From NCBI GenBank assembly GCA_028278085.1, contig JANQFB010000325.1, forward strand, positions 1-50,745: a stretch of DNA of 50,745 bases, in the 5' to 3' direction. This document shows positions 23,206-36,016 of the stretch, piece after piece. The translations under genes and the position numbers were made by a program. Position 1 is the first letter of the stretch; every line of letters begins with the position of its first letter. The notes under the pieces are model-generated. The model was not told the origin of the DNA. It searched no databases and saw nothing but the letters and a program-made list of their open reading frames with translations. This DNA is from Chitinophagales bacterium. GTDB lineage: Bacteria; Bacteroidota; Bacteroidia; Chitinophagales; JANQFB01.

Positions 23206-25362
23206 CTATACCCGCACTCCAAAAATGCAGATATCGTCAAGCTGCTCCAAACCTCCTCTCCACTTTTCGAAAATGTCGTTCAGCATGATCAGTTGGTCAT
23301 TCATTGGAGAATTTTGAACGGAAAGTAATGATTCTCTAAATCGCTTTGCCGTGTATTTTTTATTGTTGGGCCCACCAAACTGGTCCATAAAACCATCACT
23401 GAAGAGATACAGGGAATCACCCTGCTCAATTGGGACTTCAATGGTATCAAATGGTATTTCTTCCAGGTAAATGCCAATAGGTTGCCGATTGGCTTTCGTT
23501 TCAAACAATTCCCCGTTCCTGATTAAATAAAGTGGATTATAAGCGCCCGAGAATTGAAGTTCGTTCGTTTTTCTATCCCAAACACATAAGGCAATGTCCA
23601 TTCCATCCTTCACTCCCGTTTCGGATGGCTTGCCCGCCGAAACTTCTGTGGAGGAGGGCAATGCCTTGGTCCTTTCATCCGTTCCGGCGGCATGACCCAG
23701 ATCCTTTTTAATGGAATCTCTTAATTGGTTCAGGATCTCACCTGACTTTGTAATCCCCTTCTCGATCACAATTTCATTAAGCAAGCTGGATCCGATCATA
23801 GACATAAATGCCCCCGGTACACCATGACCGGTACAATCCGCCGTTGCCCAAATCACCTTATTGTCGGTAGTTTCATGCAGCCAGTAGAAGTCTCCGCTGA
23901 CAACATCTTTTGGTCTGAACAACACAAAATAATTATCACCTGAACTATTGCTTCCGAATGTCCTGTGCAAATCTTCATTAGAAGGTAAAATGGCCTCTTG
24001 GATCTTTTGGGCATACTTGATACTATCTGTGATATTGCGGTTCTTTTCATCCACTATTTCCTTTTGAGCAGTGATCACTTTCTTTTGCTGTTGGGTAACC
24101 CTGTAACGGCTGAATAAGAATATGGAAAAGATGATCACCAACGCCAATCCTGCTCCAACAGACCAAATGGCTAATCGTTGCCGCTTTACCTTTTCCTTAT
24201 TCGCTAATTCTTGTTTGTCTTTCTCCGCTTGCAGCAGGCTTTCTTTTTTATCGAATTCATATTTCATTTGCTGGGTAATGGTGGCTTTTTGTGTTTTTTC
24301 ATTGATAATGCTGTCACGCATTTGGATGTGTAATCGATACATTTCAAATGCACTTTGATAATCCCGCTCCCGGTTTGCAATGCTGTTCATCAATTTAGCC
24401 GCATCTCTTATACTCTCCGGGAAATTGGTTTCAAAACTTAAAGTCAGTGCTTCTTTCCCCGATTTTTTAGCCGCTTCAACCTTCCCAAGCGCCAGTTGTA
24501 TCGATCCGAGTTTGATGAGACTTTTGGCAATAGCATCTTTATCTTCAATTTTCCTGCTGATCGCTAATGATTGTAGTAAATAGTCGATCGCTTTTGTGGT
24601 ATCCTTTTTCATGGCCATTAACACACCGATATTGGCCAGGAAACTGGATTCGCCATCCAGATCTTCCATTTTTTGGGCTATTCCCATGGCTTTTTGGGTA
24701 TATACCAGCGCTTCATCATATTGTCCCAGATCACGGTATATCGTACCAATATTGTTCAGGGAAATGGCAATACCTTTAGCATCATCAATTTCTTCCCGGA
24801 TCTTGAGGCTTTTTTTATAATAATCCAGGGCAAGCCTGGTATCTCCTTGCCCATCGTGTATGATGCCTAAATTATTCAGCGCTATAGCGACATTTTTGCG
24901 TTCTCCCAATTCTTCCATGGTTTGCAGCGTTTGATGAAAATATTGAATGGCAGAAGCAATATCACCTTGGTTTTTATAAATGATCGCTATATTATTTAAG
25001 CAAATGGCTTTTCCCTTTTTATTGTTGAGTGCTTGCTTTATAACCAGTTCTTTTTTTAAATATTCCAGGGCTAAAACGATATCGCCTTTATTCGTGAATA
25101 AATAACCCAACCACCCATAACATTCGGAGATACCTTCCCGGTAATTCAATTGTTGAGCAATAAGCAAGGCTTGCTCGCAAAATAGAATAGCCGTATCAGG
25201 ATTTGACAAATAATAGCTGTTTGCCTTTTCGATCAGTGACTTTACTGTTGACGTATCCTCTTTTTGAGTGGTGGGGATATCTGGTGGCGTTTGCGCACTG
25301 GCAATCCTAAGGGTGGCCATTAGCCCACACCAAAAAAATGCAATATAGAATGTAATTCTCAC
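23206..25362 (-). CDS. TPR sensor + TM + PP2C/SpoIIE-family phosphatase (paralogue 3)
   Basis: Signal peptide; regular TPRs (AIALNNLGIIH, AISLNNIGTIY); TM; ADCTGHGVPGAFMS, DGMD, SDGFMDQFGG, DDICI. Confidence 0.9.
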   Translation of the reverse strand: MRITFYIAFFWCGLMATLRIASAQTPPDIPTTQKEDTSTVKSLIEKANSYYLSNPDTAILFCEQALLIAQQLNYREGISECYGWLGYLFTNKGDIVLALEYLKKELVIKQALNNKKGKAICLNNIAIIYKNQGDIASAIQYFHQTLQTMEELGERKNVAIALNNLGIIHDGQGDTRLALDYYKKSLKIREEIDDAKGIAISLNNIGTIYRDLGQYDEALVYTQKAMGIAQKMEDLDGESSFLANIGVLMAMKKDTTKAIDYLLQSLAISRKIEDKDAIAKSLIKLGSIQLALGKVEAAKKSGKEALTLSFETNFPESIRDAAKLMNSIANRERDYQSAFEMYRLHIQMRDSIINEKTQKATITQQMKYEFDKKESLLQAEKDKQELANKEKVKRQRLAIWSVGAGLALVIIFSIFLFSRYRVTQQQKKVITAQKEIVDEKNRNITDSIKYAQKIQEAILPSNEDLHRTFGSNSSGDNYFVLFRPKDVVSGDFYWLHETTDNKVIWATADCTGHGVPGAFMSMIGSSLLNEIVIEKGITKSGEILNQLRDSIKKDLGHAAGTDERTKALPSSTEVSAGKPSETGVKDGMDIALCVWDRKTNELQFSGAYNPLYLIRNGELFETKANRQPIGIYLEEIPFDTIEVPIEQGDSLYLFSDGFMDQFGGPNNKKYTAKRFRESLLSVQNSPMNDQLIMLNDIFEKWRGGLEQLDDICIFGVRV
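23603..23659. repeat. Inverted pair of REP-like stem-loop units embedded in frame in PP2C paralogue 3
   Basis: Minus strand CCATCC-GAAAC-GGGA-GTGAA-GGATGG (23603-23628) and plus strand GCCCGCC-GAAAC-TTCT-GTGGA-GGAGGGC (23632-23659). Confidence 0.65.
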
Positions 25363-25508
25363 TGGCCTTTCCGGATCAGATCCACCGTATAGGTTTTGGT
25401 AAATCTTAATAAAAGTCCGGATTTTTCCAAATTTATCCTATTACTGCCAGTACTGCTAAAGCAATCGGTCCACCTGCCTGACAAATCAGGAAACCCCGGG
25501 CTCGCCCG

Positions 25509-25716
25509 GAAGTGAAAAAGAAAAATGCGTAAAATGGCCTCCCCAAATATATGCCGCATAAAAACAAAAAGCCCTTTCTGGATCGACAAGGCTTTTTCTA
25601 CTTTTATGCAGGGCTTGTCCTGAAGTGAAAAAGAAAAATGCGTAAAATGGCCACTCCAAATATATACCGCATAAAAATAAAAAGCCTTGACTTTTACGAC
25701 AAGGCTTTTTCTACTT
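25509..25716. repeat. Two imperfect direct copies of a ~95-bp unit (period 113 bp) just outside the left att site
   Basis: GAAGTGAAAAAGAAAAATGCGTAAAATGGCC...CGACAAGGCTTTTTCTACTT starts at 25509 and at 25622. Confidence 0.9.
25679..25710. terminator. Bidirectional terminator-like hairpin, probably the original tRNA-Glu terminator displaced by the integration
   Basis: AAAAAGCCTTG-N10-CAAGGCTTTTT perfect 11-bp inverted repeat, about 10 bp beyond the duplicated tRNA 3' end. Confidence 0.65.
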
Positions 25717-25720
25717 CAGG

Positions 25721-25743
25721 GCAGCCCCTAGGAGAATCGAACT
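25721..25743. repeat. Left att core (duplicate of tRNA-Glu 3' end)
   Basis: GCAGCCCCTAGGAGAATCGAACT, identical to 32029-32051. Confidence 0.95.
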
Positions 25744-25854
25744 ATCATTATTCACCATTATCAATTCATATCAAAAATGCAGGATAATCGCTTGTTATAG
25801 CTTAATTTAGGAATTAAGAGTAATAAAGAGAAATAAGATTTGATCAATAAAAAG

Positions 25855-25873
25855 TGTCCCCTATACTGTCCCC
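25855..25873 (+). promoter_or_regulatory. Putative integrase arm-type binding sites (left)
   Basis: TGTCCCC twice with 12-bp period, preceded by AAAG; same arrangement at 31954-31972. Confidence 0.65.
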
Positions 25874-25932
25874 TGGTTAAAATTTTGTTTATCTTTATTG
25901 TACCTCATTGATAACCTTTAATTCATACAGTT

Positions 25933-27189
25933 ATGGCAAAAACAAGATTCTTCCTTAAAGACCCAAAAGGGGACAAACCTACATTAGTTTACCTTTTCTT
26001 TAGCTTCAACAGCAATAGGTTGAAATATTCTACCGGGGAAATGATACACCCTAAGTACTGGAATAATGACAAGGCAGTGGAACGTGCAATTAATAGCAAA
26101 AAGTTTCCTGAATACCCGGAATTTAATCAAGCGTTGAATGATATTGAAACCCTTGTAAATAACATCCACCGGAGATTAAAAAATGATGGACACATTCCAA
26201 CGGTTGAAATGATCCGGGATGAACTGGATAAAAATTTGGGGAGGGTTAAAGTTGGTACTAATAAATCGTTTTTGGGTTACCTGGATGAATATATTGAAAT
26301 TACAAAAGTCAAAAAACGAGCTAACACAATTAAAAAGTTTAACGCCCTAAAAACCCATCTTGTTGATTTTCAAAAGATCAAACGGTTTAAACTATCCTTT
26401 GGGAAAATAGATATGTCATTCTTTGAGAAGTTTGAAAATTATTTAATGACCGAGACAGAAGATAAACCATCATTAGTTGATAACAGTATAGGTAAATATA
26501 TTGCAGCGTTAAAGGCGTTTCTCAACTGGACAGTTGAACGTGAATTAAATGCAAATTTGAAGTTTCAAAAGTTTCCAGTTTACCGTAGGGAGGCCGATAT
26601 TATTTATTTAACCGAATTGGAACTGATGAAGCTGTATGAGTTTGACCTTTCCCAAAAGAAACACTTAGAGCGAATACGTGATGCGTTTTGTTTTGGTTGT
26701 TTTACTGGTCTTCGATATAGCGACTATGCACAGATAACCTCCAAAGATATAAAGGAAGATAGTATTAAAATCCGGTCCGTCAAGACTAAGGATTTTCTCA
26801 ACGTTCCTTTGAATGATTATGCTATCGAGATACTTGAAAAATACAACTATCAATTGCCAGTAGTTGCCAACCAACCAATGAACCGGGCAGTAAAAGAGAT
26901 AGGAGAGATGGCCGGAATAGATACCCCCGTTATAATTACCAAGTTACAAGGCGGTAAAACAATTGAAACCCAAGGCCCAAAGTATGAGTTATTGAGTACC
27001 CATTGTGGACGTAGAACCTTTGTTACTTTATCACTGGAAAAAGGTATGAGGCCCGAAACTGTTATGAGTATAACAGGCCATAAGGACTATCAAACTTTTA
27101 AAAAATATGTAAAGATCACTGACAAGGTTAAAAAGGTCGAAATGAATCGAGTTTGGAAAAAACCTGAAACAGCATTAAAGGCTGTCTAA
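25933..27189 (+). CDS. Tyrosine recombinase/integrase with N-terminal arm-DNA-binding domain
   Basis: N-terminal RLKYSTG..IHPKYWN arm-binding motif; catalytic residues FTGLRYSD (R), KT (K), HCGRRT (HxxR), TGH and KKY all present. Confidence 0.95.
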   Translation: MAKTRFFLKDPKGDKPTLVYLFFSFNSNRLKYSTGEMIHPKYWNNDKAVERAINSKKFPEYPEFNQALNDIETLVNNIHRRLKNDGHIPTVEMIRDELDKNLGRVKVGTNKSFLGYLDEYIEITKVKKRANTIKKFNALKTHLVDFQKIKRFKLSFGKIDMSFFEKFENYLMTETEDKPSLVDNSIGKYIAALKAFLNWTVERELNANLKFQKFPVYRREADIIYLTELELMKLYEFDLSQKKHLERIRDAFCFGCFTGLRYSDYAQITSKDIKEDSIKIRSVKTKDFLNVPLNDYAIEILEKYNYQLPVVANQPMNRAVKEIGEMAGIDTPVIITKLQGGKTIETQGPKYELLSTHCGRRTFVTLSLEKGMRPETVMSITGHKDYQTFKKYVKITDKVKKVEMNRVWKKPETALKAV

Positions 27190-27195
27190 AATACC

Positions 27196-27223
27196 GGGGG
27201 TAGCCGATTAGCTACCCCCTTTT
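27196..27223 (+). terminator. Intrinsic terminator after the integrase
   Basis: GGGGGTAGC-CGATTA-GCTACCCCC-TTTT, perfect 9-bp stem. Confidence 0.75.
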
Positions 27224-27250
27224 CATTTCTCTCATTGATACCCCGAAATC

Positions 27251-28012
27251 ATGGCAAAGAATTACACATTAGAAGATGTTAGCAAAATGTTGCACGAGGC
27301 CCAATTAGAAGCCCAAAAAGAATTTGAACATTGGAATAAATCGGAGTTGCCTAAATTGATCCGGGGATTATTTGTCGAAAAGGAAATTGAAAAATTAAAA
27401 GAGCTAAATAATGATTGCCTTTTACATTTAAACGAATTTCTAGCGAAAAATCCAATATTCGAGACTCTCACCCCGGATAATGTTAATAATGAAATTCTGA
27501 ACCTTGTAAATATGTCAGATAATTTCATCCCATTTAAACCATGTAAGGTTATTACATGCAATGAAGAAAACACAAACTTTGAAAGGTGCAAGAAACTTTA
27601 CTTATTGAATACCTATTACAGTCTCTTGTTGGACTATTCAAAAGACCGGATAAATGAGTTAGCAGGGGGTGAGCCGAAAATCGAACCATTAGAAAACCCA
27701 ATAGACCTGAATACGATTCCCGGACGTGTTATGCTGTTTGAGTATTTGGGATTGATAGACTTCTTAACAGAAAAATATGAGATCACCTTTCAAAGTACTA
27801 CCATGTCAAAAACTTTAGGGTATCTCATGCAGGAAAACCCGGACAGTATAAGGCCATATCTTTCAAGTCTTCGCGTGTTCCAAAAAGGTAAAAATAACCC
27901 CAAAAATTCTAAATCGCTAACCCAAGTTATTAAGACTTTGGAAGACTTGAAATTGAAACCTGACCTTGTGCCAAAGGTCCAAAACGACCTCAAAAAAATA
28001 ACATCCGAATAA
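27251..28012 (+). CDS. Hypothetical element protein, possible C-terminal HTH (candidate activator of xis-rep)
   Basis: 253-aa ORF between int and xis; QSTTMSKTLGYLMQENPDSIRPYLSSL looks HTH-like (inference). Confidence 0.7.
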   Translation: MAKNYTLEDVSKMLHEAQLEAQKEFEHWNKSELPKLIRGLFVEKEIEKLKELNNDCLLHLNEFLAKNPIFETLTPDNVNNEILNLVNMSDNFIPFKPCKVITCNEENTNFERCKKLYLLNTYYSLLLDYSKDRINELAGGEPKIEPLENPIDLNTIPGRVMLFEYLGLIDFLTEKYEITFQSTTMSKTLGYLMQENPDSIRPYLSSLRVFQKGKNNPKNSKSLTQVIKTLEDLKLKPDLVPKVQNDLKKITSE

Positions 28013-28100
28013 AAAGAATAAAACTTGTGGGAACCCTCAATAAATCCTACAAAATTCCTACCTCAATTTTGGCAAAGAACAATCAAAAAATCTTTGCCTT

Positions 28101-28403
28101 ATGCAACAACAAATACTTATTACTATTCCCATCGACCAATTCGAGACAAGACAAAAAGAATTAATTAGAGAGGTACTGGCTGAACAACCAACACCTGAAC
28201 CCACTTCCCCAGAGTCCCCCGATTACCTCACCCGCAAAGAGACAGCCAAACTATTAAGAATCTCACTCCCTACCTTACACGAATGGACTAAGTCAGGGGA
28301 TTTGAAATCTTATCGTATTGCCGGGAAGATTCGGTACAAGACAGCCGAAATTGAAGCTGCATTTAAACAGGTAGATGTATTGAAATACAAAAGGAAAGTA
28401 TAA
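28101..28403 (+). CDS. Excisionase-like helix-turn-helix protein (HTH_17/MerR-like)
   Basis: YLTRKETAKLLRISLPTLHEWTKSGDLKSYRIAGKIRYK is a canonical Xis-type wHTH. Confidence 0.9.
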   Translation: MQQQILITIPIDQFETRQKELIREVLAEQPTPEPTSPESPDYLTRKETAKLLRISLPTLHEWTKSGDLKSYRIAGKIRYKTAEIEAAFKQVDVLKYKRKV

Positions 28404-28416
28404 TGCGGACCATCAT

Positions 28417-28485
28417 AAAAAAGGGCAACTTTTTACGGCTGCCCTACCTCATTGATTAACCGCAGTTATGACAACTACAGAAATC
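28417..28485 (-). ncRNA. Predicted ~70-nt antisense (counter-transcribed) RNA over the rep leader
   Basis: Minus-strand Bacteroidota promoter TTTG(28520-28517)-N19-TACCTTTG(28497-28490) and minus-strand terminator AGGGCAGC-N8-GTTGCCCT-TTTTT (28445-28417). The 5' end is approximate. Confidence 0.55.
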
Positions 28486-28506
28486 CCTACAAAGGTACGT
28501 TTTTGA
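28468..28506 (+). CDS. Putative 12-aa leader peptide translationally coupled to rep
   Basis: ATG 28468 gives MTTTEIPTKVRF*; its TGA (28504-28506) overlaps the TTG (28503-28505) that begins MIDFIKI. Confidence 0.4.
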   Translation: MTTTEIPTKVRF

Positions 28507-29774
28507 TTGACTTCATCAAAATACAAGATTTACCCATAGATCATAATGATCTCATTAATTCTCCGTATCTGGAATTTGAAGGTAAGTATAACCGACTAAC
28601 AGGAGAAATCTATGAATTTCCATTGTCTGCTGAATACAATAAAATAACATTCTCAATCAATGATAATGCTAAGTATAGAGTAGATAACCCCAGCATTCCA
28701 TATAAAATCCATTGCAACGTTTCCGGGAGTATCCACAAGTACTTTGATGCAAATGATAGCAACGCATCAGATTTTACTTATCGGCAGCTAATTGATTCCA
28801 TCATAGAAATATGTTCCAAGTTCAGGCTAAACCCCTTTAAATGCGTTCTAACGAATGTAGAGTTTGGAGTTAACATAATACCGCCAATACCATCTGACAA
28901 GGCTCTACGTAATCTTATTAATCATTGGGGTCATGAATTTACACACGTGGGAGGTAAGGCCAAAGGTAAGGAATGCTGTAAACAACAATACTGGATCAAA
29001 ATATATGATAAGAACTGGAAAAGAAAATCGGGTCATGAACTATTACGAATAGAGATCCATGTTGCTAAGATGAATTATCTAACAGAGATCGGAATAAGAA
29101 CGTTAGCGGATTTATTGAGCCTGGATAAAATAATGCAATTAGGAGCAAAATTAGAGGCTATATGGAACGGTATACGATATTTTGATGATACCCTACTTTT
29201 TGATAAAATGAATGATAAGGAGCGTTCATTTATGAATCAATGGAGAAACCCGATCTACTGGCAGGAACTAAAGGAAATTAAATATACAACCTACAAATAT
29301 CACGGCAAAAGGTTCAAAGAAATTACAGAGAAATACAGCCGGGATCACCGGCAAAAACAAATAGGATCACTTATCAAAAAAAAGTGCGCTGAACTATTAA
29401 TCTGTGATCAGGAAACACTATCCAAATTAACCATTTTCTTAGATCAATATTCTAAGGCCAAAACTATCCAAATTACTACTCCTAGTATAGAATTAATCAT
29501 TCCAGAAACACACACAACTCTATCACCTAATAATGGACAAGAAAAAAGAAGATGCAAAACATGTGGGAAGGATATATCAAACCAGAAGGAAGATAGTTTT
29601 TTTTGTAGTGCAAAGTATGTAGGAGAAGAAAGAGCAAAACAATGCCGGAACGCCGATAGTAATCCTAGGAATTACATTAAGAGAAAGATTAATAGGATAC
29701 ACATGTATCCAGTACTATTTGATCCAAATAGATACCTGGTACTAAATGAAGATCAAAAGAAGTTATTAGCATAA
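28503..29774 (+). CDS. Replication initiator, rolling-circle Rep_trans / phage gene II-like, with C-terminal Cys4 zinc ribbon (start TTG 28503 preferred over 28452)
   Basis: MIDFIKI start; GSIHKY, NVEFGVNI, IKIYDK (putative catalytic Tyr) and LLRIEI motifs; C-terminal CKTC...FCS...CRN. Confidence 0.7.
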   Translation: MIDFIKIQDLPIDHNDLINSPYLEFEGKYNRLTGEIYEFPLSAEYNKITFSINDNAKYRVDNPSIPYKIHCNVSGSIHKYFDANDSNASDFTYRQLIDSIIEICSKFRLNPFKCVLTNVEFGVNIIPPIPSDKALRNLINHWGHEFTHVGGKAKGKECCKQQYWIKIYDKNWKRKSGHELLRIEIHVAKMNYLTEIGIRTLADLLSLDKIMQLGAKLEAIWNGIRYFDDTLLFDKMNDKERSFMNQWRNPIYWQELKEIKYTTYKYHGKRFKEITEKYSRDHRQKQIGSLIKKKCAELLICDQETLSKLTIFLDQYSKAKTIQITTPSIELIIPETHTTLSPNNGQEKRRCKTCGKDISNQKEDSFFCSAKYVGEERAKQCRNADSNPRNYIKRKINRIHMYPVLFDPNRYLVLNEDQKKLLA

Positions 29775-29996
29775 TTTGAATGCAATCACCACAAGTACCA
29801 TACATGGGATTTACGGCCATTTATCCCTTTATAGGGGTTACCCCTTACAAAAGGTAGAAATGCGCTAAAATGCCGTTTCTGCATACGGAGAACATGAATC
29901 TTGATTAGTACCCGGATTTAGTAATATTATCTATATGGCTATCGCTGTTATGGTCCCTGGGTCCACATCTGAAATTTAGGAAACATTTTATTAATG

Positions 29997-30227
29997 CTAA
30001 ATATCAAAATCAAATAATTCCTTCATTGAAACGCTTAACCCTTTAGCAATCCTGTAAACTGTTGAAGTAGAAACATTATGCTCTCCTCTTTCTATTCGAC
30101 CTATCTGCTTACCATGATTTTCAATTAAATTGCCTAATTGTTCCTGGGTTAGCTTGCGTTCGTTACGCAATTGCCTTATTCGCCTGCCCAACGCCTTTAA
30201 AAATTCTTCATCCCTGACATATTCCAT
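29997..30227 (-). CDS. XRE-family (HTH_3) transcriptional regulator
   Basis: LGRRIRQLRNERKLTQEQLG...IGRIERGEHNVS...IAKGLSV. Confidence 0.9.
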   Translation of the reverse strand: MEYVRDEEFLKALGRRIRQLRNERKLTQEQLGNLIENHGKQIGRIERGEHNVSTSTVYRIAKGLSVSMKELFDFDI

Positions 30228-30345
30228 GAATGCAAGTTTGCATATTGCCAGAAATTATAAAACCACATATTTGTAGCAAATAATTGTCGGTTTTCTTGGA
30301 TACAATGATAGAGTTCTATAATTTGGCTGGTACATATTATTGCAT

Positions 30346-30535
30346 TAGTCGCTCCCTGCGTCAAAAACTGGTGATTTTTTAGAAATACAGGGATTTTGAT
30401 TAATGCCCACATCCTGGCTATTGCCCGTATGCTTGCGGGTAACTAGTCGGGATTAAGTTAAACGTGGGCATAGTTCGTCTGTATTTCGGGTATACCAGTA
30501 CCTTGACGTAAGGCGGCTATGTCCCACGTTTTTTT
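30346..30535 (+). ncRNA. Long structured RNA / leader (rod-like hairpin with alternative terminator-like fold)
   Basis: Seven nested helices, 58 bp in total, with 7 G.U pairs and no A.C mismatches within the helices. It begins just after a -7-like TATTATTG (30335-30342) and ends in a T7 tract. Confidence 0.7.
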
Positions 30536-30556
30536 ATGCCTTAAACTCATGTAAAC

Positions 30557-30742
30557 ATGAAATCTAAACAATCAAAGAAACTCTGCAAACAAGTAGACAA
30601 CCTGCAATTAGAAATTGAAACATTGACAGCTACCGTCGAGATGTGTTTAACCCGGCAAAGTGAGTTTATTAAAACAGTTAATACCGTATCTACCAACGCC
30701 AAAGACTGTATTGCCGATATAAAGGCAACCCTATCCAAGTAG
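30557..30742 (+). CDS. Small coiled-coil hypothetical protein downstream of the structured leader
   Basis: 61 aa, ATG in A-rich context, heptad-like pattern; followed by a hairpin at 30775-30804. Confidence 0.55.
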   Translation: MKSKQSKKLCKQVDNLQLEIETLTATVEMCLTRQSEFIKTVNTVSTNAKDCIADIKATLSK

Positions 30743-30774
30743 TTCCAGGATAAAACTTCATTTTATTAATTCAC

Positions 30775-30804
30775 GGCCCTACCTGCTATTTGTAGGTAGT
30801 GGCC
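30775..30804 (+). terminator. Hairpin, possible terminator of the leader + 61-aa ORF transcript
   Basis: GGCC-CTACCTGC-TATTT-GTAGGTAG-T-GGCC followed by T-rich sequence. Confidence 0.45.
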
Positions 30805-30831
30805 TATTATTTCATTCCAAAAAGGATCATC

Positions 30832-31107
30832 ATGGAATATGATATTTTATATGTTATCGCATACGATAGGCGTATTGGATACTGGATATTGATCACAGAG
30901 AATATTATGGATGAGAATGAAGGGTATTCAGAATCGGGATTTAAAACGCTATCAGAGGCAAAAGAAGTAGTAACACATGAAATCAACCTGGTTAATGAAC
31001 TTGAAAAGGATAAGAAAGTAATTGAGGTAGATATTAGTGATCGTTCTGATGGCTTAGATTCAGAGGGAATAACAAGATTAATTGTTGAAATGCTCAATCG
31101 CTCCTGA
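30832..31107 (+). CDS. Small acidic hypothetical protein (likely ATG 30832)
   Basis: 91 aa; beta-beta-beta-alpha-like pattern with SGFKTLSEAK. Confidence 0.55.
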   Translation: MEYDILYVIAYDRRIGYWILITENIMDENEGYSESGFKTLSEAKEVVTHEINLVNELEKDKKVIEVDISDRSDGLDSEGITRLIVEMLNRS

Positions 31108-31329
31108 AGATGAAAAGAGGCAAAGAGAGAAATTAATTAGACTTGTCAAAAAAAAGGGGAAGATCCCCAACACCCGATATAATCACCCCCACAATTTTCA
31201 AAAATTCAGACAATTGTATACTAAAGTAGTATAATTTAGTATGGCACGGGGGAAGATTAACACGAATAAAGTACACTAAGTCTACTATAATAATCTTAGA
31301 TAAAGCTTGGAAAAATAAAGCGAGCAAAA

Positions 31330-31545
31330 TCATTCTTGGCTCTTTAACCACGATTGGACTTTTTCTTCCATTTTGGCCTCGGCTTCATTTCGGGTTTTGC
31401 CATAAGTTTCACTAAATTGATCACCTATCTCTTTATCCTTGACCCCATTTTTATATGTAACCATCCGCACTTTTGCAACATATTTAAATGTGCCAATTGG
31501 TTCCATTGGGTCTACAATAATATAATAACCGTAGTTTTTATTCAT
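31330..31545 (-). CDS. Small hypothetical protein, HicB-N/dsRBD-like pattern
   Basis: 71 aa; beta strands followed by ETYGKTRNEAEAKMEEKVQSWL. Confidence 0.55.
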   Translation of the reverse strand: MNKNYGYYIIVDPMEPIGTFKYVAKVRMVTYKNGVKDKEIGDQFSETYGKTRNEAEAKMEEKVQSWLKSQE

Positions 31546-31620
31546 TTCTTGAAGTAAACTTTCGCAAGCGTTCTTCTAAAGTTATAGTTTTTTATTCACT
31601 TATTTTTTAATTTTAGTATC

Positions 31621-31899
31621 ATGCCATTTGAAACCGGACATACAAAGCAGGGAGGACGTAAAGCAGGAACACGCAACAAAACAACACTGGCGGTTAAGGA
31701 GAAGATTCAACAGTTTATCGACGGTTACACCATTGAAGAAATGCAGGAGGATTTTAAAAAATTAGAACCATTAGAGAAGTTGAAATTATTTACAGCGATG
31801 ATCGAATTTGTGCAACCTAAATTGCAACGTACCAATGCGATTATTGAAGATCATACCATAAATGTAACAGTTGGAGGAAAATCTTATAAGAAACGGTAA
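31621..31899 (+). CDS. Small terminase-subunit-like protein (DUF5681-like N-terminus)
   Basis: MPFETGHTKQGGRKAGTRNK Gly/basic N-terminal motif, two central helices, PKLQR and a short C-terminal beta tail. This is an architecture I associate with TerS-like proteins; not database-confirmed. Confidence 0.55.
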   Translation: MPFETGHTKQGGRKAGTRNKTTLAVKEKIQQFIDGYTIEEMQEDFKKLEPLEKLKLFTAMIEFVQPKLQRTNAIIEDHTINVTVGGKSYKKR

Positions 31900-31953
31900 A
31901 TGAGCACACCTATTGATGAAGTAGTCTGTAATTGGGATCAAAACGGTTCAAAG

Positions 31954-31972
31954 TGTCCCCCCTAGTGTCCCC
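31954..31972 (+). promoter_or_regulatory. Putative integrase arm-type binding sites (right)
   Basis: TGTCCCC twice with 12-bp period, preceded by AAAG, as at 25855-25873. Confidence 0.65.
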
Positions 31973-32028
31973 CAAAAGAATATGACCCCTACAAACGATT
32001 GATTTTCAGGAGAGTATATTGTGAAGTT

Positions 32029-32051
32029 GCAGCCCCTAGGAGAATCGAACT
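32029..32051. repeat. Right att core (within tRNA-Glu)
   Basis: GCAGCCCCTAGGAGAATCGAACT, identical to 25721-25743. Confidence 0.95.
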
Positions 32052-32101
32052 CCTGTTTTCAGAATGAAAATCTGACGTCCTAACCACTAGACGAAGGGGC
32101 C
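32030..32101 (-). tRNA. tRNA-Glu (anticodon TTC), CCA not encoded
   Basis: Reverse complement folds as acceptor GGCCCCT/AGGGGCT, D-arm GTCTAGTGGTTAGGAC, anticodon arm TCAGA-TTTTCAT-TCTGA and T-arm AGGAG-TTCGATT-CTCCT. Confidence 0.97.
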
Positions 32102-32116
32102 AAATACCACTTCTTA

Positions 32117-32143
32117 CCTGCCGTAGCGGAATGCGAAGGCAGG
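32117..32143 (+). repeat. REP-like stem-loop in the tRNA leader, between two copies of ACGAAGGGGCC
   Basis: CCTGCC-GTAGC-GGAAT-GCGAA-GGCAGG; the 11-mer occurs at 32091-32101 and 32146-32156. Confidence 0.65.
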
Positions 32144-32434
32144 AAACGAAGGGGCCGTGCTATATTTTAGCGTGTGCAAATTTAGAATATTTTCAATCAA
32201 AATCATAAACACCCAAAAATTATTTTTTAACCCTTACCCCCTATCCTTACATCTCTGATCGGTTGACCAAGACTTACGAAAAATCGTATACCCCGGTCCG
32301 GGCATCTCTCCTTTTACGCCATTTGAAGCATTTGGATACATACCTCCTTCGCCGGAGTTGCCGCTACAACAGGCTCCGGTATTTTTTCCGGGGAAAGGGA
32401 ATCGATTTTATCCCGGATCAGTTAAATTTGCGTC

Positions 32435-33436
32435 ATGTCAACCATAAAAATTGCCATCAACGGATTCGGGAGGATCGGCCGCTTATCGCTGAGAGCCTTG
32501 CTCCCCAACGACCAATGCCAGGTAGTAGCTATTAATGACCTGGCCGATAATCGAACCCTCGCTCACCTGTTCAAATATGATACGGCTCAGGGTCAATTTA
32601 TGGGGGATGTGGGTTTTGATGAAGACCATATCTCCGTCAATGGTCAATCGATCAAAGTATTTGCGGAAAGAGATCCGGCCCAATTGCCCTGGAACGATTT
32701 GGGCGTGGAACTGGTGATCGAATGCACCGGGATCTTCCGCAACCGTGAAGGGGCCTCCAAACACCTGGAAGCCGGTGCCAAAAAGGTCGTCATCTCCGCA
32801 CCCGCCAAAGGAGATATTAAAACCATTGTTTTAGGGATCAATGATGACCTGTTAACGAAAGAAGACGATATCATTTCCAATGCATCCTGTACCACCAATT
32901 GTCTGGCGCCCATGTTGCAGGTGCTGCATGACCGGTTCGAGATCCAGAAAGGATTTGTAACCACTGTTCATGCTTACACAGCGGATCAGCGGATGCAGGA
33001 TGCTCCCCACAGCGATCTCAGAAGAGCCCGGAGCGCCCCCAACAACATCGTACCGACCTCTACCGGGGCCGCGCAGGCTGTCGGGAAAGTCTTGCCGCAC
33101 CTGGCGGGCAAGCTGCATGGAAGCGCTCTGCGTGTCCCGGTGATCGACGGTTCTTTAACCGAACTGACCTGCCTGATCAAAACGGCCGTTGACGGGGAGG
33201 AGATCAACCGAACCTTTAAAGAAGCGGCGGACAACCGCCTGAAAGGCATACTCGCCTATACGGAAGAACCCTTGGTATCTGCCGACATCATCGGCAATCC
33301 GCATTCCTGCATTTTTGATGCCGGGTTGACCAACACCCTCGATAATATGGTCAAAATTACCGGATGGTATGATAACGAATTCGGTTATGCAACCCGGATC
33401 GCCGACCTGACCGCTAAATTATGTCAGCTATTCTAA
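32435..33436 (+). CDS. gap: Type I glyceraldehyde-3-phosphate dehydrogenase
   Basis: INGFGRIGR, catalytic ASCTTNCLAP, WYDNEFGY. Confidence 0.98.
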   Translation: MSTIKIAINGFGRIGRLSLRALLPNDQCQVVAINDLADNRTLAHLFKYDTAQGQFMGDVGFDEDHISVNGQSIKVFAERDPAQLPWNDLGVELVIECTGIFRNREGASKHLEAGAKKVVISAPAKGDIKTIVLGINDDLLTKEDDIISNASCTTNCLAPMLQVLHDRFEIQKGFVTTVHAYTADQRMQDAPHSDLRRARSAPNNIVPTSTGAAQAVGKVLPHLAGKLHGSALRVPVIDGSLTELTCLIKTAVDGEEINRTFKEAADNRLKGILAYTEEPLVSADIIGNPHSCIFDAGLTNTLDNMVKITGWYDNEFGYATRIADLTAKLCQLF

Positions 33437-33482
33437 CGACCATCGAAGGGTGGATAGCACCTAATAAGTAAAACGTATTTTC

Positions 33483-34676
33483 ATGAATACAGTAGCAGGA
33501 TTTGATTGCAGCGGAAAGAAAATGCTGGTCCGCGTGGATTTTAACGTCCCCCTCGATGAAGAGCATAAGATCCAGGATGATACCCGGATGCGAGCCGCTG
33601 CACCTACCCTCAAAAAGATTATTGGCGATGGCGGATCGGCCATTGTGATGTCCCATTTAGGGAGGCCCAAGCAAGGGCCGGAAGAAAAATTTTCGCTCAG
33701 GCATTTGGTAGGACATTTGCAGGAATTATGCGGCGCACCGGTTCGGTTTGCAGACAATTGTATTGGAGAACCTGCCGAGGAACAGGCAAATTCCCTGGCG
33801 CCAGGGGAGATCCTGCTGCTTGAAAATACCCGTTTTCATGCAGAAGAAACAGCCGGCGACCAGGATTTTGCAAAAGCTTTGGCAGCTTTGGGTGACGGCT
33901 ATGTCAACGATGCCTTTGGTACGGCCCACCGGGCTCATGCTTCGACCACCGTGGTGGCGGATTTCTTTCCCAATGACCGAAAGATGTTCGGATACCTGAT
34001 GGCCAAAGAGATCCAAAATGCCGACCAGGTATTATTGAATACCCAACATCCTTTTACCGCGATCATTGGCGGGGCAAAAGTATCCGATAAGATCCTGATC
34101 ATCGAACGACTGTTGGAAAAAGCGGATAACATCCTGATCGGAGGAGGGATGGCTTATACTTTTTTCCGGGCCAAACAAGGTCGTGTGGGCAATTCGTTGG
34201 TCGAAGAAGATAAGGTCGAACTGGCCGGGGAACTGATCCGGAAAGCGGCCGAAAAGAAAGTCTCGCTCATCCTCCCGGAAGATTCCGTCATAGCCGACGC
34301 CTTCGACAACCAGGCCAATACCGATATTTCGGATAGCGGTGCGATCCCCGATGGGTGGATGGGACTGGATATCGGTCCACAAGCCTGCAAATCTTTTAAG
34401 GAGGTGATCCTATCCTCCAAAACCTTGTTGTGGAATGGCCCGATGGGCGTATTTGAAATGGAGAACTTCGCCAAAGGTACCCGGTCGATTGCCGAAGCAG
34501 TGGCCGGAGCTACGGAGAAAGGCGCCTTTTCATTGGTCGGCGGAGGAGATTCCATGGCAGCGATTAACCAAATGGGGCTGGCGAATAAGGTCAGTTACGT
34601 ATCCACCGGCGGAGGCGCTATGCTCGAATACTTTGAAGGCAAAGAATTGCCGGGGATAAAGGCCATTTTGAATTAG
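33483..34676 (+). CDS. pgk: Phosphoglycerate kinase
   Basis: [48 protein letters not shown]. Confidence 0.98.
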
Positions 34677-34848
34677 GCCTTTAATATTCCGTCTGGAAAT
34701 TTGGGAAATTGCCGATTTTGTCATAGGTTGCCGCTTGGTCATAATTACCGGTTAATATGTATTTTTTTGCTATTATGAAGTCCGCAGCCAATTGGTATCT
34801 TGACCCCGGGAAATAGACAGATTTTCACAACACATAAAAATTACAATC

Positions 34849-35874
34849 ATGGCAAAAACCGTTACAAATAAGCCTAAACTGACCCGGATCCTATCCATCG
34901 ACGGTGGCGGGATCAGAGGCATCATACCGGGCCAGATCCTGGTAAGCTTAGAGAAAATGTTGCAGCAAAAAACCGGGAAACGGGGGCTGCATATATCTGA
35001 TTGTTTTGATCTGATTGCCGGCACCAGTACCGGCGGCATACTAACCTGCGCTATCCTGGCGCCTGAGAAAGTCGGGTCTGCCAAGCCGAAATTCACGGCC
35101 CAGGAAGTAGTGGATCTTTACCTGGAAAGGGGTGATGAGATCTTTGAAATACCATTGATGCATAAGATCAAGTCAGGTGGCGGAATACTGGATGAGAAGT
35201 ATCCGGCAGACGGTTTGGAAGAAGCCTTGCAGGATTATTTCCAGGAGCTTTGGCTCAGTGATCTGATCAAGCCCTGCCTGATTACCTCCTATGATATCAA
35301 AAGAAGGAGAGCGCATTTCTTTACACAAGTAGATGCGAAACAAACACCTTCCCGTAACTACCGGGTGAGGGATGTGGCCAGGGCTACTTCAGCCGCACCT
35401 ACCTATTTTGAGTGTGCCCGGGTAAAATCGAAGACCAATATCACCTATCCCTTGGTTGATGGCGGTACATTTGCCAATAATCCCACCCTATGTGCCTATG
35501 CGGAAGTGCGGGATCTGTTCAAAAAACACGCCACCGATATAGCGATCTTATCCCTGGGAACAGGCCATACCAGCAAATCCTATTCCTACAAAGAGGCTAA
35601 AAACTGGGGAATGGCAGAATGGATCAAGCCGGTGATCGATATCATGATGGCCGGTGTGTCCGAAACTGTCGATTACCAGATCCACCAGATCTATGAAGCT
35701 GTCGATAAGCCGGATCAATATCTCAGGATCAATCCCTCCCTCGTAGGTACGGATGTCAACCCGGATATGGATGATGCAACCACGGAAAACCTCCAGGCAT
35801 TGAGAGAACTGGGCACCGAAACCGCCCAGAATTATGAAGAGCAACTGAAAAAATTCATTGATCTGATCATTTAA
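34849..35874 (+). CDS. Patatin-like phospholipase
   Basis: DGGGIRG, GTSTG nucleophile, SAAPTYF, DGG. Confidence 0.92.
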   Translation: MAKTVTNKPKLTRILSIDGGGIRGIIPGQILVSLEKMLQQKTGKRGLHISDCFDLIAGTSTGGILTCAILAPEKVGSAKPKFTAQEVVDLYLERGDEIFEIPLMHKIKSGGGILDEKYPADGLEEALQDYFQELWLSDLIKPCLITSYDIKRRRAHFFTQVDAKQTPSRNYRVRDVARATSAAPTYFECARVKSKTNITYPLVDGGTFANNPTLCAYAEVRDLFKKHATDIAILSLGTGHTSKSYSYKEAKNWGMAEWIKPVIDIMMAGVSETVDYQIHQIYEAVDKPDQYLRINPSLVGTDVNPDMDDATTENLQALRELGTETAQNYEEQLKKFIDLII

Positions 35875-36016
35875 GGAGATTTCCCCCAACCCTGCCATTT
35901 TATATCCTTAAATTTGCTTGCTGGCCGGTCATCGTATTTCCATGAAAAATTGTAAATTGTTCCGGGCTGGAATAAATGGATCATATTCCTTCCGCTTTGG
36001 ATCAAAATAATTGTAT

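Follow-up and report, generated by a model that had tools for sequence, protein, structure and literature searches.

The window (the whole stretch of 50,745 nucleotides analyzed here, from a Chitinophagales bacterium) holds a 6.3-kb integrated element at positions 25721-32051, which is delimited by 23-bp direct repeats corresponding to the 3' end of a tRNA-Glu gene (Table 1). The element carries, in this order, a tyrosine integrase, a 253-aa ORF, an HTH_17 excisionase-type protein, a 440-aa protein, a divergent XRE gene, the structured RNA that is the subject of this study, and small orphan ORFs. In size and gene set it is reminiscent of small phage-satellite-like or mobilizable elements. The same core order (253-aa ORF, HTH, and a relative of the 440-aa protein) was seen at locus L037. 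The XRE gene is absent from the ORF lists of the neighborhoods of five relatives (L037, L205, L127, L124, and L181). The 61-aa ORF downstream of the RNA is a putative gene with zero relatives among 5.8 billion proteins of 33-107 aa and with no match in Pfam, PHROG, or NCBIfam.

The 440-aa protein has no sequence match in Pfam, PHROG, NCBIfam, or PDB. The clusters nearest to the Atlas model of a homologue (P0012) are Phage_CRI/G2P replication initiators (TM 0.49-0.51 by query, feature score 0.78-0.80), and, as a lead from this model only, the protein is possibly a rolling-circle replication initiator. Among 400 other sampled genomes of the class, 28 hold a relative of the protein. On many metagenome and genome contigs, relatives were obtained with a 5-sequence alignment, a single-sequence query having given none and a 20-sequence alignment being too divergent. 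The family is widespread in Bacteroidota (193 metagenome, 120 genome, and only 3 viral relatives), and its invariant residues include G92, S93, H95, E137, K183, Y185, K187, R199, and E201. The RNA is carried by only about 7 of the ~190 loci that have the 440-aa gene. Adjoining one relative of this gene, on a contig labelled Dependentiae, is an iteron-like direct-repeat block (L155:951-1230, repeats of the type GTATGACTTYGTGG..TATCTGTTCGCG), which is unrelated to the RNA family.

Table 1. Positions of the element's features and of the segments of the RNA in the window
Feature	Position	Strand	Remark
attL	25721..25743	.	exact 23-bp repeat also at 32029; identical to tRNA-Glu 3' end
Tyrosine integrase	25933-27189		in the 6.3-kb element
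440-aa core protein	28452..29774	+	C-terminal Cys-rich motif
XRE-family HTH gene	29997..30227	-	HTH_31/HTH_3, E about 1e-11; divergent from the RNA
CATATTTG	30266..30273	+	7/8 match to TAnnTTTG; 74 nt before model start
TATAATTTG	30317-30325	+	second candidate promoter
ACATAT box	30332..30337	+	5-20 nt before segment 0 in many members (40 upstream sequences, by eye)
Hairpin H1	30342..30406	+	5' arm self-folded; MFE
Segment 0	30342-30353	+	within H1
Apical loop L1 (ACTGGT)	30367-30372	+	within H1
Segment 1 (ATGCCCACA)	30403..30411	+	partner of segment 2 at rod apex
Hairpin H2	30411..30453	+	extra stable insert in apical loop between segments 1 and 2
Hairpin H3	30460..30531	+	predicted terminator fold; MFE
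Segment 2	30460-30473	+	within H3
Loop L3 (ACCAGT)	30494-30499	+	within H3
Segment 3	30517-30531	+	within H3
T7 tract	30529..30535	+	directly 3' of segment 3
61-aa ORF	30557..30742	+	begins 20 nt past model end; orphan, putative gene
tRNA-Glu(TTC)	32029..32101	-	3'-terminal 23 bp (32029-32051) = attR

Folds of the window copy

The initial annotation of this DNA had described a rod-shaped RNA of seven nested helices with 58 bp, seven G.U pairs, and no A.C pair. All seven helices were found in their places (window 30346-30519) and all 58 pairs are standard, the G.U pairs being 30349/30516, 30353/30512, 30358/30509, 30415/30449, 30417/30447, 30423/30440, and 30428/30435. This rod evaluates to -74.6 kcal/mol. 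The unconstrained minimum free energy (MFE) of positions 30340-30540 is -83.8 kcal/mol and belongs to a three-hairpin fold, H1 + H2 + H3, followed by the T7 tract. The alternative pairing that had been proposed beside the rod, between AAACGTGGGCATAG (30460-73) and CTATG-T-CCCACGTTT (30517-31), was recovered inside H3 of this MFE fold.

When compared with shuffled sequences (shuffle mean -51.6 ± 4), the plus strand reached a z-score of -8.06, with none of 200 shuffles as good, versus -2.82 for the minus strand of the region. With DNA folding parameters, the values were -4.68 for the plus strand and -2.98 for the minus strand. The earlier claim of a single-stranded structure of the plus strand is supported. 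Also present as described were TATTATTG (30335-42), the ACATATT words (30265 and 30332), the 61-aa ORF, and the divergent XRE gene. The two words had been regarded as operator-like sites of the XRE gene; however, the one at 30332 is a box conserved in the RNA family and the one at 30265 overlaps a promoter-like -7 box, so that neither word is evidence for XRE operators.

Important to note here is that the window copy is an atypical member of the family described below, as it has the extra hairpin H2, a three-hairpin MFE fold, and an orphan downstream ORF and is devoid of segment 4. Inserts of the H2 type are limited to the window copy and locus L223. The two inserts are unrelated to each other and sit at the same position between segments 1 and 2 (alignments A5 and A7), which supports the apex helix of the rod.

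Homologues, distribution, and genomic settings

BLAST-type DNA searches with the 216-nt region retrieved nothing real in phages or plasmids and only chance matches of 22-39 nt in 400 genomes of the class; at family rank, the sample consisted of this genome alone. A sliding MFE scan of the loci of the Rep-like 440-aa family returned L037 and L169, along with tRNAs, tandem repeats, and iterons, which were dropped. The energy scan combined with nhmmer revealed a similar plus-strand structure downstream of the 440-aa gene in L037, L205, L127, L124 (identical to L164), and L181 (a locus of Flavobacterium sp. GT3R68), all five of which were confirmed by a covariance model (R1). Viral contigs were then scanned for the pattern, and candidates were examined with R1, which yielded L279, L232, L218, and L223 as well. 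A further model (R2) was built on the rod from a structure-blind MAFFT alignment of 10 sequences (A6) and recovered L169, whose switch segments are wholly different in sequence. At a threshold of E ≤ 0.001 per genome, R2 matched 42 of the 151 sampled genomes of the class. These are spread over 34 of 101 genera, and a single genome can hold as many as 8 copies. When the sample was drawn from the whole phylum, R2 matched 24 of 151 genomes, and only five weak matches lay outside the class.

Three copies are found in the genome under study, namely the one in the window and those at C447:6038-6194 and C390:2845-3007. Their mean column identity of 63% argues against a recently spreading repeat. The copies on C447 and C390 share the loop pair CGACCA/TGGTCG, and the window copy has ACTGGT/ACCAGT. 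Copies of one genome with matching loops could interact in trans.

The RNA had initially been judged undescribed, and no Rfam family matches the window or the member loci. A scan of window positions 24000-36000 against Rfam 15 at E ≤ 1 gave only the tRNA-Glu and a chance miRNA match (E 0.14), 10 member loci gave only tRNA at the gathering score, and 20 further member loci gave tRNAs and one chance sRNA match at E ≤ 1. The RNA therefore falls outside the families of Rfam 15, including C4 antisense RNA, Flavo-1, Bacteroidales-1, and 6S. Full-text searching of the literature brought up no description of the RNA family. The RNA belongs to a widespread and apparently uncatalogued structured family of the class Bacteroidia.

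The genes around the members are diverse, and the family shows no fixed link with satellites, the XRE gene, or the Rep-like gene. Downstream genes encode signal-peptide proteins in about 23 of 40 members (judged by eye), including DUF4468, PEGA, TonB_C, DUF5991, and phage tail collar proteins; others encode three DNA methylases (two N6_N4_Mtase and one MmeI-like), TonB-dependent receptors, and a response regulator. Upstream genes include, on the housekeeping side, tRNAs, asnB, alr, era, ribonucleotide reductase, and accC and, on the mobile or defense side, TraO/TraQ, a relaxase, IS1595, AbiEii, and AbiC. No conserved neighboring protein that would hint at a trans factor was seen.

Conservation of two alternative folds

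The RNA contains four mutually complementary segments that allow two states. In the rod state of ~55 bp, the two arms are paired with each other, as are segments 1 and 2, and segment 0 is joined to the 3' part of segment 3. In the hairpin state, segment 0 pairs with the bases just before segment 1 to form H1, and segment 2 pairs with segment 3 to form H3.

The thermodynamic preference of the family is for the rod. When the first 10 members were folded singly, the rod was the full-length MFE in nine, the window copy being the exception. Duplexes between the two arms reached z-scores of -6.9 to -8.7 against shuffled arms in these members, and the hairpins alone reached -2.9 to -5.7 (H3) and -0.1 to -3.9 (H1). 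Across the full set of 40 members, in which rod length ranges from 46 to 61 bp, the rod duplex is always more stable than the two arm hairpins together (mean -60.0 versus -47.4 kcal/mol), and the rod is the equilibrium fold in 39. The plus strand has a lower MFE than the minus strand in 39 of 40 (mean difference 8.8 kcal/mol), and 140 G.U cells versus 18 A.C cells occupy the rod positions. This excess of G.U over A.C indicates that it is the single-stranded form of the plus strand that is under selection.

Both folds are maintained by compensatory changes. On A6, the rod pairs 84.4% of the cells, compared with 35-44% when the partners are slid; 18 of 33 pairs have changed on both sides, and none of 500 shuffles reached the observed paired share or covariation score. 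On A7, an alignment of 40 sequences that was fitted to the rod and hence leans toward it, 92.6% of 1229 cells are paired and 27 of 33 pairs have changed on both sides, again with no shuffle out of 500 as good. The hairpin fold pairs 84.9% of the cells on A6 (38-50% when slid), with changes on both sides in 15 of 32 pairs, and still 79.8% of 1086 cells on A7, the alignment fitted to its rival. Among the individual helices, the base helix of the putative terminator (2:3) is paired in 96.5% of cells in 40 members, and helix 1:2 in 95.2% with seven of nine pairs changed on both sides. In the inner helix of H1, all five pairs have changed on both sides on A6, and the L1:L3 helix is 94.7% paired on A7 with all eight pairs changed on both sides. 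The covariation of L1 with L3 fits either a helix of the rod or a predicted kissing contact between H1 and H3.

Segments 1, 2, and 3 have changed together in L037, L344, L342, L169, L320, L337, and L325, as would be expected if one segment has two alternative partners. An unbiased enumeration of helices on alignment A5 found 1:2, 2:3, the H3 apex, and 3:4 to be conserved; 1:2, 2:3, and 3:4 are mutually exclusive. The 3:4 pairing joins GUCCC of segment 3, which the rod leaves unpaired in some of the members, with GGGAC located ~20-27 nt beyond segment 3, and it has covarying variants. It reaches individual significance in only 12 of 40 members (mean z -1.1), and the window copy does not have it. 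As segment 4 lies beyond the T-tract, this pairing suggests that read-through transcripts exist and take the rod state.

The structure and its two folds are real, conserved, and beyond chance. The comparison of homologues, which the initial annotation had named as a way to examine both folds, yielded compensatory changes for each of them. From its interpretation, a plus-strand RNA with two mutually exclusive folds, one of which ends at a T-tract, and without an Rfam match was upheld, and its analogy to immunity RNAs of phages and satellites, the XRE operators, and the single-strand origin did not find support, for the reasons given above and below.

Candidate functions

A T-tract, with at least five T within the 10 nt after segment 3, is found in 39 of 40 members, and 36 of 40 have a run of at least four T. 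H3 is a G+C-rich hairpin directly before this U-tract, as in terminators, and 1:2 is a conserved pairing that excludes the terminator stem, as in attenuators. In 35 of 40 members, the same strand has an ORF of at least 40 aa that begins no more than 160 nt away; the ATG of this ORF is located 20-55 nt past the model end in 30 of 40. Upstream, the consensus of the Bacteroidota -7 box, TAnnTTTG, is present as an exact motif in 21 of 40 members, at a distance of 57-73 nt in 14 and of 22-32 nt in 7. In the window, CATATTTG is a candidate promoter of the leader, as judged from its likeness to this motif. Among sequencing runs, no RNA run was found to contain the region, and the one run that contains the stretch is a DNA run of a coral metagenome, possibly its source.

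We favor, with moderate confidence, the reading that window positions 30340-30536 (plus strand) constitute a cis-acting 5' leader with a conditional terminator before an accessory gene. The RNA would probably gate whether the downstream gene is read. In this mechanism, the leader would be transcribed from a housekeeping-type promoter ~25-75 nt upstream, and the start codon of the accessory gene would follow 20-55 nt downstream; H3 would act as a classical hairpin-plus-U-tract terminator. When prefixes of increasing length were folded, all six members tested gave H1 first and the 1:2 hairpin next, after which the 3' arm zipped progressively onto the 5' arm; in the window copy, a change to H1 + H2 + H3 takes place only once segment 3 appears. 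The early formation of H1 would make it a kinetic trap. If H1 persists, the 3' arm would fold on itself, segment 3 would displace segment 1, and transcription would stop. If H1 is opened, the 3' arm would zip onto the 5' arm, segment 2 would be kept by segment 1, and the polymerase would read into the gene. The complementary loops L1 and L3 could nucleate the opening of H1, and GUCCC of segment 3, once released, might then pair in many members with the downstream GGGAC. Candidate triggers are a protein that binds H1, temperature, or polymerase speed. The T-tract is also directly adjacent to the 5-bp base of the rod (AGCGU/ACGCU); termination might therefore occur in both folds, and the on and off states could have been wrongly assigned.

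The proposed leader shares several traits with trp and pyr attenuators and with the expression platforms of riboswitches. Like these, it has a hairpin and U-tract in a (here predicted) 5' leader, segment 2 pairs with either segment 1 or segment 3, and an upstream hairpin, H1, forms first and would bias the choice as the PyrR-bound anti-antiterminator does. Unlike in attenuators and riboswitches, no conserved unpaired ligand pocket is seen in this family. Other differences from attenuators are that the terminator competes with a full-length 55-bp rod in which both arms take new partners, that the loops of H1 and H3 are mutually complementary, and that the genes served by the family are unrelated to one another. 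An ATG in segment 1 was considered as the start of a leader peptide and rejected; it is missing in L127, L181, L232, and L218, which makes a leader peptide unlikely, unlike in peptide attenuators.

The CI RNA of satellite P4 and the C4 RNA of phages P1 and P7 are processed leader RNAs that set immunity, and the initial annotation had regarded the window RNA as their analogue. Like them, the window RNA would lie in the leader of a small integrated element and has one segment that is complementary to two others (seqB with seqA and seqC in P4). The family differs from them in its lack of any Rfam match, C4-type families included, in the absence of a target site outside the leader within the element, and in its settings, which mostly lie outside immunity regions and include plain chromosomal ones. 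The analogy is not supported, as the genes that follow the RNA are of many kinds, few of them phage regulators, and no complementary site of at least 11 nt exists elsewhere in the element.

A related explanation is that the RNA is a stand-alone sRNA gene, in which the hairpin fold only terminates transcription and a transcript of ~200-260 nt refolds to the rod and acts in trans, either in immunity or as an antisense RNA in the manner of P4 CI and P1 C4, or by binding a protein. The predominance of the rod at equilibrium, the nearly universal T-tract, and the formal likeness of segment 2 to seqB of P4 are in line with this explanation, and the loop sequences, which vary between copies, could give specificity. 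We nevertheless consider it unlikely, as the 6.3-kb element offers no complementary site of the length given above, the settings are mostly not immunity regions, and spacing and orientation to the downstream ATG are conserved in 30-35 of 40 members with no conserved promoter motif seen between the T-tract and the ATG (by eye, 40 members). Furthermore, the covariation of the 3:4 pairing beyond the T-tract in a subset of members suggests that read-through transcripts matter.

Quite unlikely, in our estimate, is a constitutive 5' rod that stabilizes or processes the mRNA, as an RNase III substrate or a protective structure, and that adds insulation by a leaky terminator without any switch. Such a role would agree with the near-continuous double strand of 46-61 bp and with its placement at the boundaries between housekeeping and accessory genes, and the 3:4 hairpin could cap a processed mRNA. 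It leaves unexplained, however, why 2:3 and H1 are kept up by compensatory changes beside the rod.

That the element folds as single-stranded DNA, either as the single-strand origin of a rolling-circle replicon, which had been the alternative of the initial annotation, or as an attC-like site for cassette recombination, is very improbable. In its favor are the strand-specific fold, an apex that accepts inserts differing in length, and the 440-aa protein on the same strand, which is perhaps, as a lead only, a Phage_CRI-like initiator. A linked, co-oriented rolling-circle rep gene, as expected for a single-strand origin, is nevertheless not a property of the family, since a Rep-like gene is absent in 4 of the first 10 members (L279, L232, L218, and L223) and at 33 further loci (mostly examined over 1.5-kb flanks). 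The copies are scattered over contigs and mostly solitary, with one tandem pair (in G143), and do not form the cassette-spaced arrays beside an integron integrase that characterize attC sites. The T-tract, the fixed orientation, and the ATG spacing point to an RNA, as does the lower z-score of the plus strand with RNA than with DNA parameters.

A selfish palindromic repeat of the MITE or REP type, spreading between genes without a function for the cell, is hardly probable either: up to 8 copies per genome, short inverted-repeat ends (AGCGT...ACGCT), and the frequent proximity of mobile-element genes speak for it, but the three copies of the genome under study are far from the near-identical copies in either orientation that define such repeats, 35 of 40 members are oriented toward a downstream ORF, G.U cells prevail over A.C cells, and covariation is extensive across 34 genera. 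An invertible promoter was rejected, given that the entire segment, and not its ends alone, is self-complementary and strand-asymmetric.

Two groups of published Bacteroidota RNAs invite comparison with the family. Fremin and Bhatt (2021; PMC8040213) list the palindromic Bacteroidetes candidates HMP_4078 (109 bp, near D5_N and integrase domains) and HMP2_4205 (132 bp, terminator-like), which resemble our family as long palindromic candidate RNAs that are near phage or integrase genes or terminator-like. They are reported to fold on both strands, whereas our family is strongly strand-asymmetric; it may nonetheless overlap with them. FopS and GibS are multicopy sRNAs of Bacteroidaceae for which phage-borne copies are noted (PMC11697453), and they share with our family the multicopy occurrence in Bacteroidota. 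FopS is reported to combine a single-stranded seed with a terminator hairpin, to target PUL mRNAs in trans, and to be deposited in Rfam (PMC11697453); with respect to these traits, our family has a different structure and no Rfam match.

The preferred reading would thus assign the RNA to a known kind, the leader with a conditional terminator, with a putative function; its architecture is unusual and the family is apparently new. If transcribed as predicted, it would be among the commoner structured RNAs of Bacteroidia that are missing from Rfam (42 of 151 sampled genomes, often with several copies). If the reading is true, accessory genes, among them those for restriction-modification methylases, TonB-dependent receptors, and secreted proteins and the cargo of integrated elements and prophages, would have in common a point of control that the family marks. 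The opposition of a full-length rod to two hairpins with complementary loops, with both states kept by covariation, would offer a clean natural model for kinetically controlled RNA switching. For annotation, the RNA may serve to flag the starts of accessory transcription units where promoters and leaders are poorly known.

Extending the leader reading, we tentatively imagine the family as a kinetic RNA gate that needs no ligand and that is positioned, by Bacteroidia and by their mobile elements, before horizontally acquired genes for defense, surface, and secreted functions. The choice between rod and hairpins would be made by a global input, for instance temperature, the speed of the polymerase when a phage attacks, or an RNA-binding protein that recognizes the conserved apex of H1, and the copy-specific loops L1 and L3 as kissing partners would nucleate refolding and could let loop-matched copies talk in trans. 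This wider picture is speculative, and we regard it as doubtful.

Some loci are of interest for the position of the RNA relative to elements and islands. At L348 (G007:C19:118500-127500), two copies lie on opposite strands, 4.8 kb apart, and read away from each other; they bracket element-like genes (a 299-aa ORF, an HTH gene, a 488-aa Cys-rich protein, and a DUF1016 nuclease), and one of them is followed by a 705-aa methylase-like gene. In L348-type elements, the RNA may thus be a mark of cargo units that read outward. At L346 (G000:C447) and L322, a same-strand tRNA gene is located ~285-485 nt upstream of the RNA, beside housekeeping genes (asnB and era), which suggests that the RNA is often found at the tRNA-proximal edge of an island. 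The tandem pair mentioned above, at L347 (G143:C2:1361040-1361461), consists of two copies ~100 nt apart on the same strand and is the only such pair seen.
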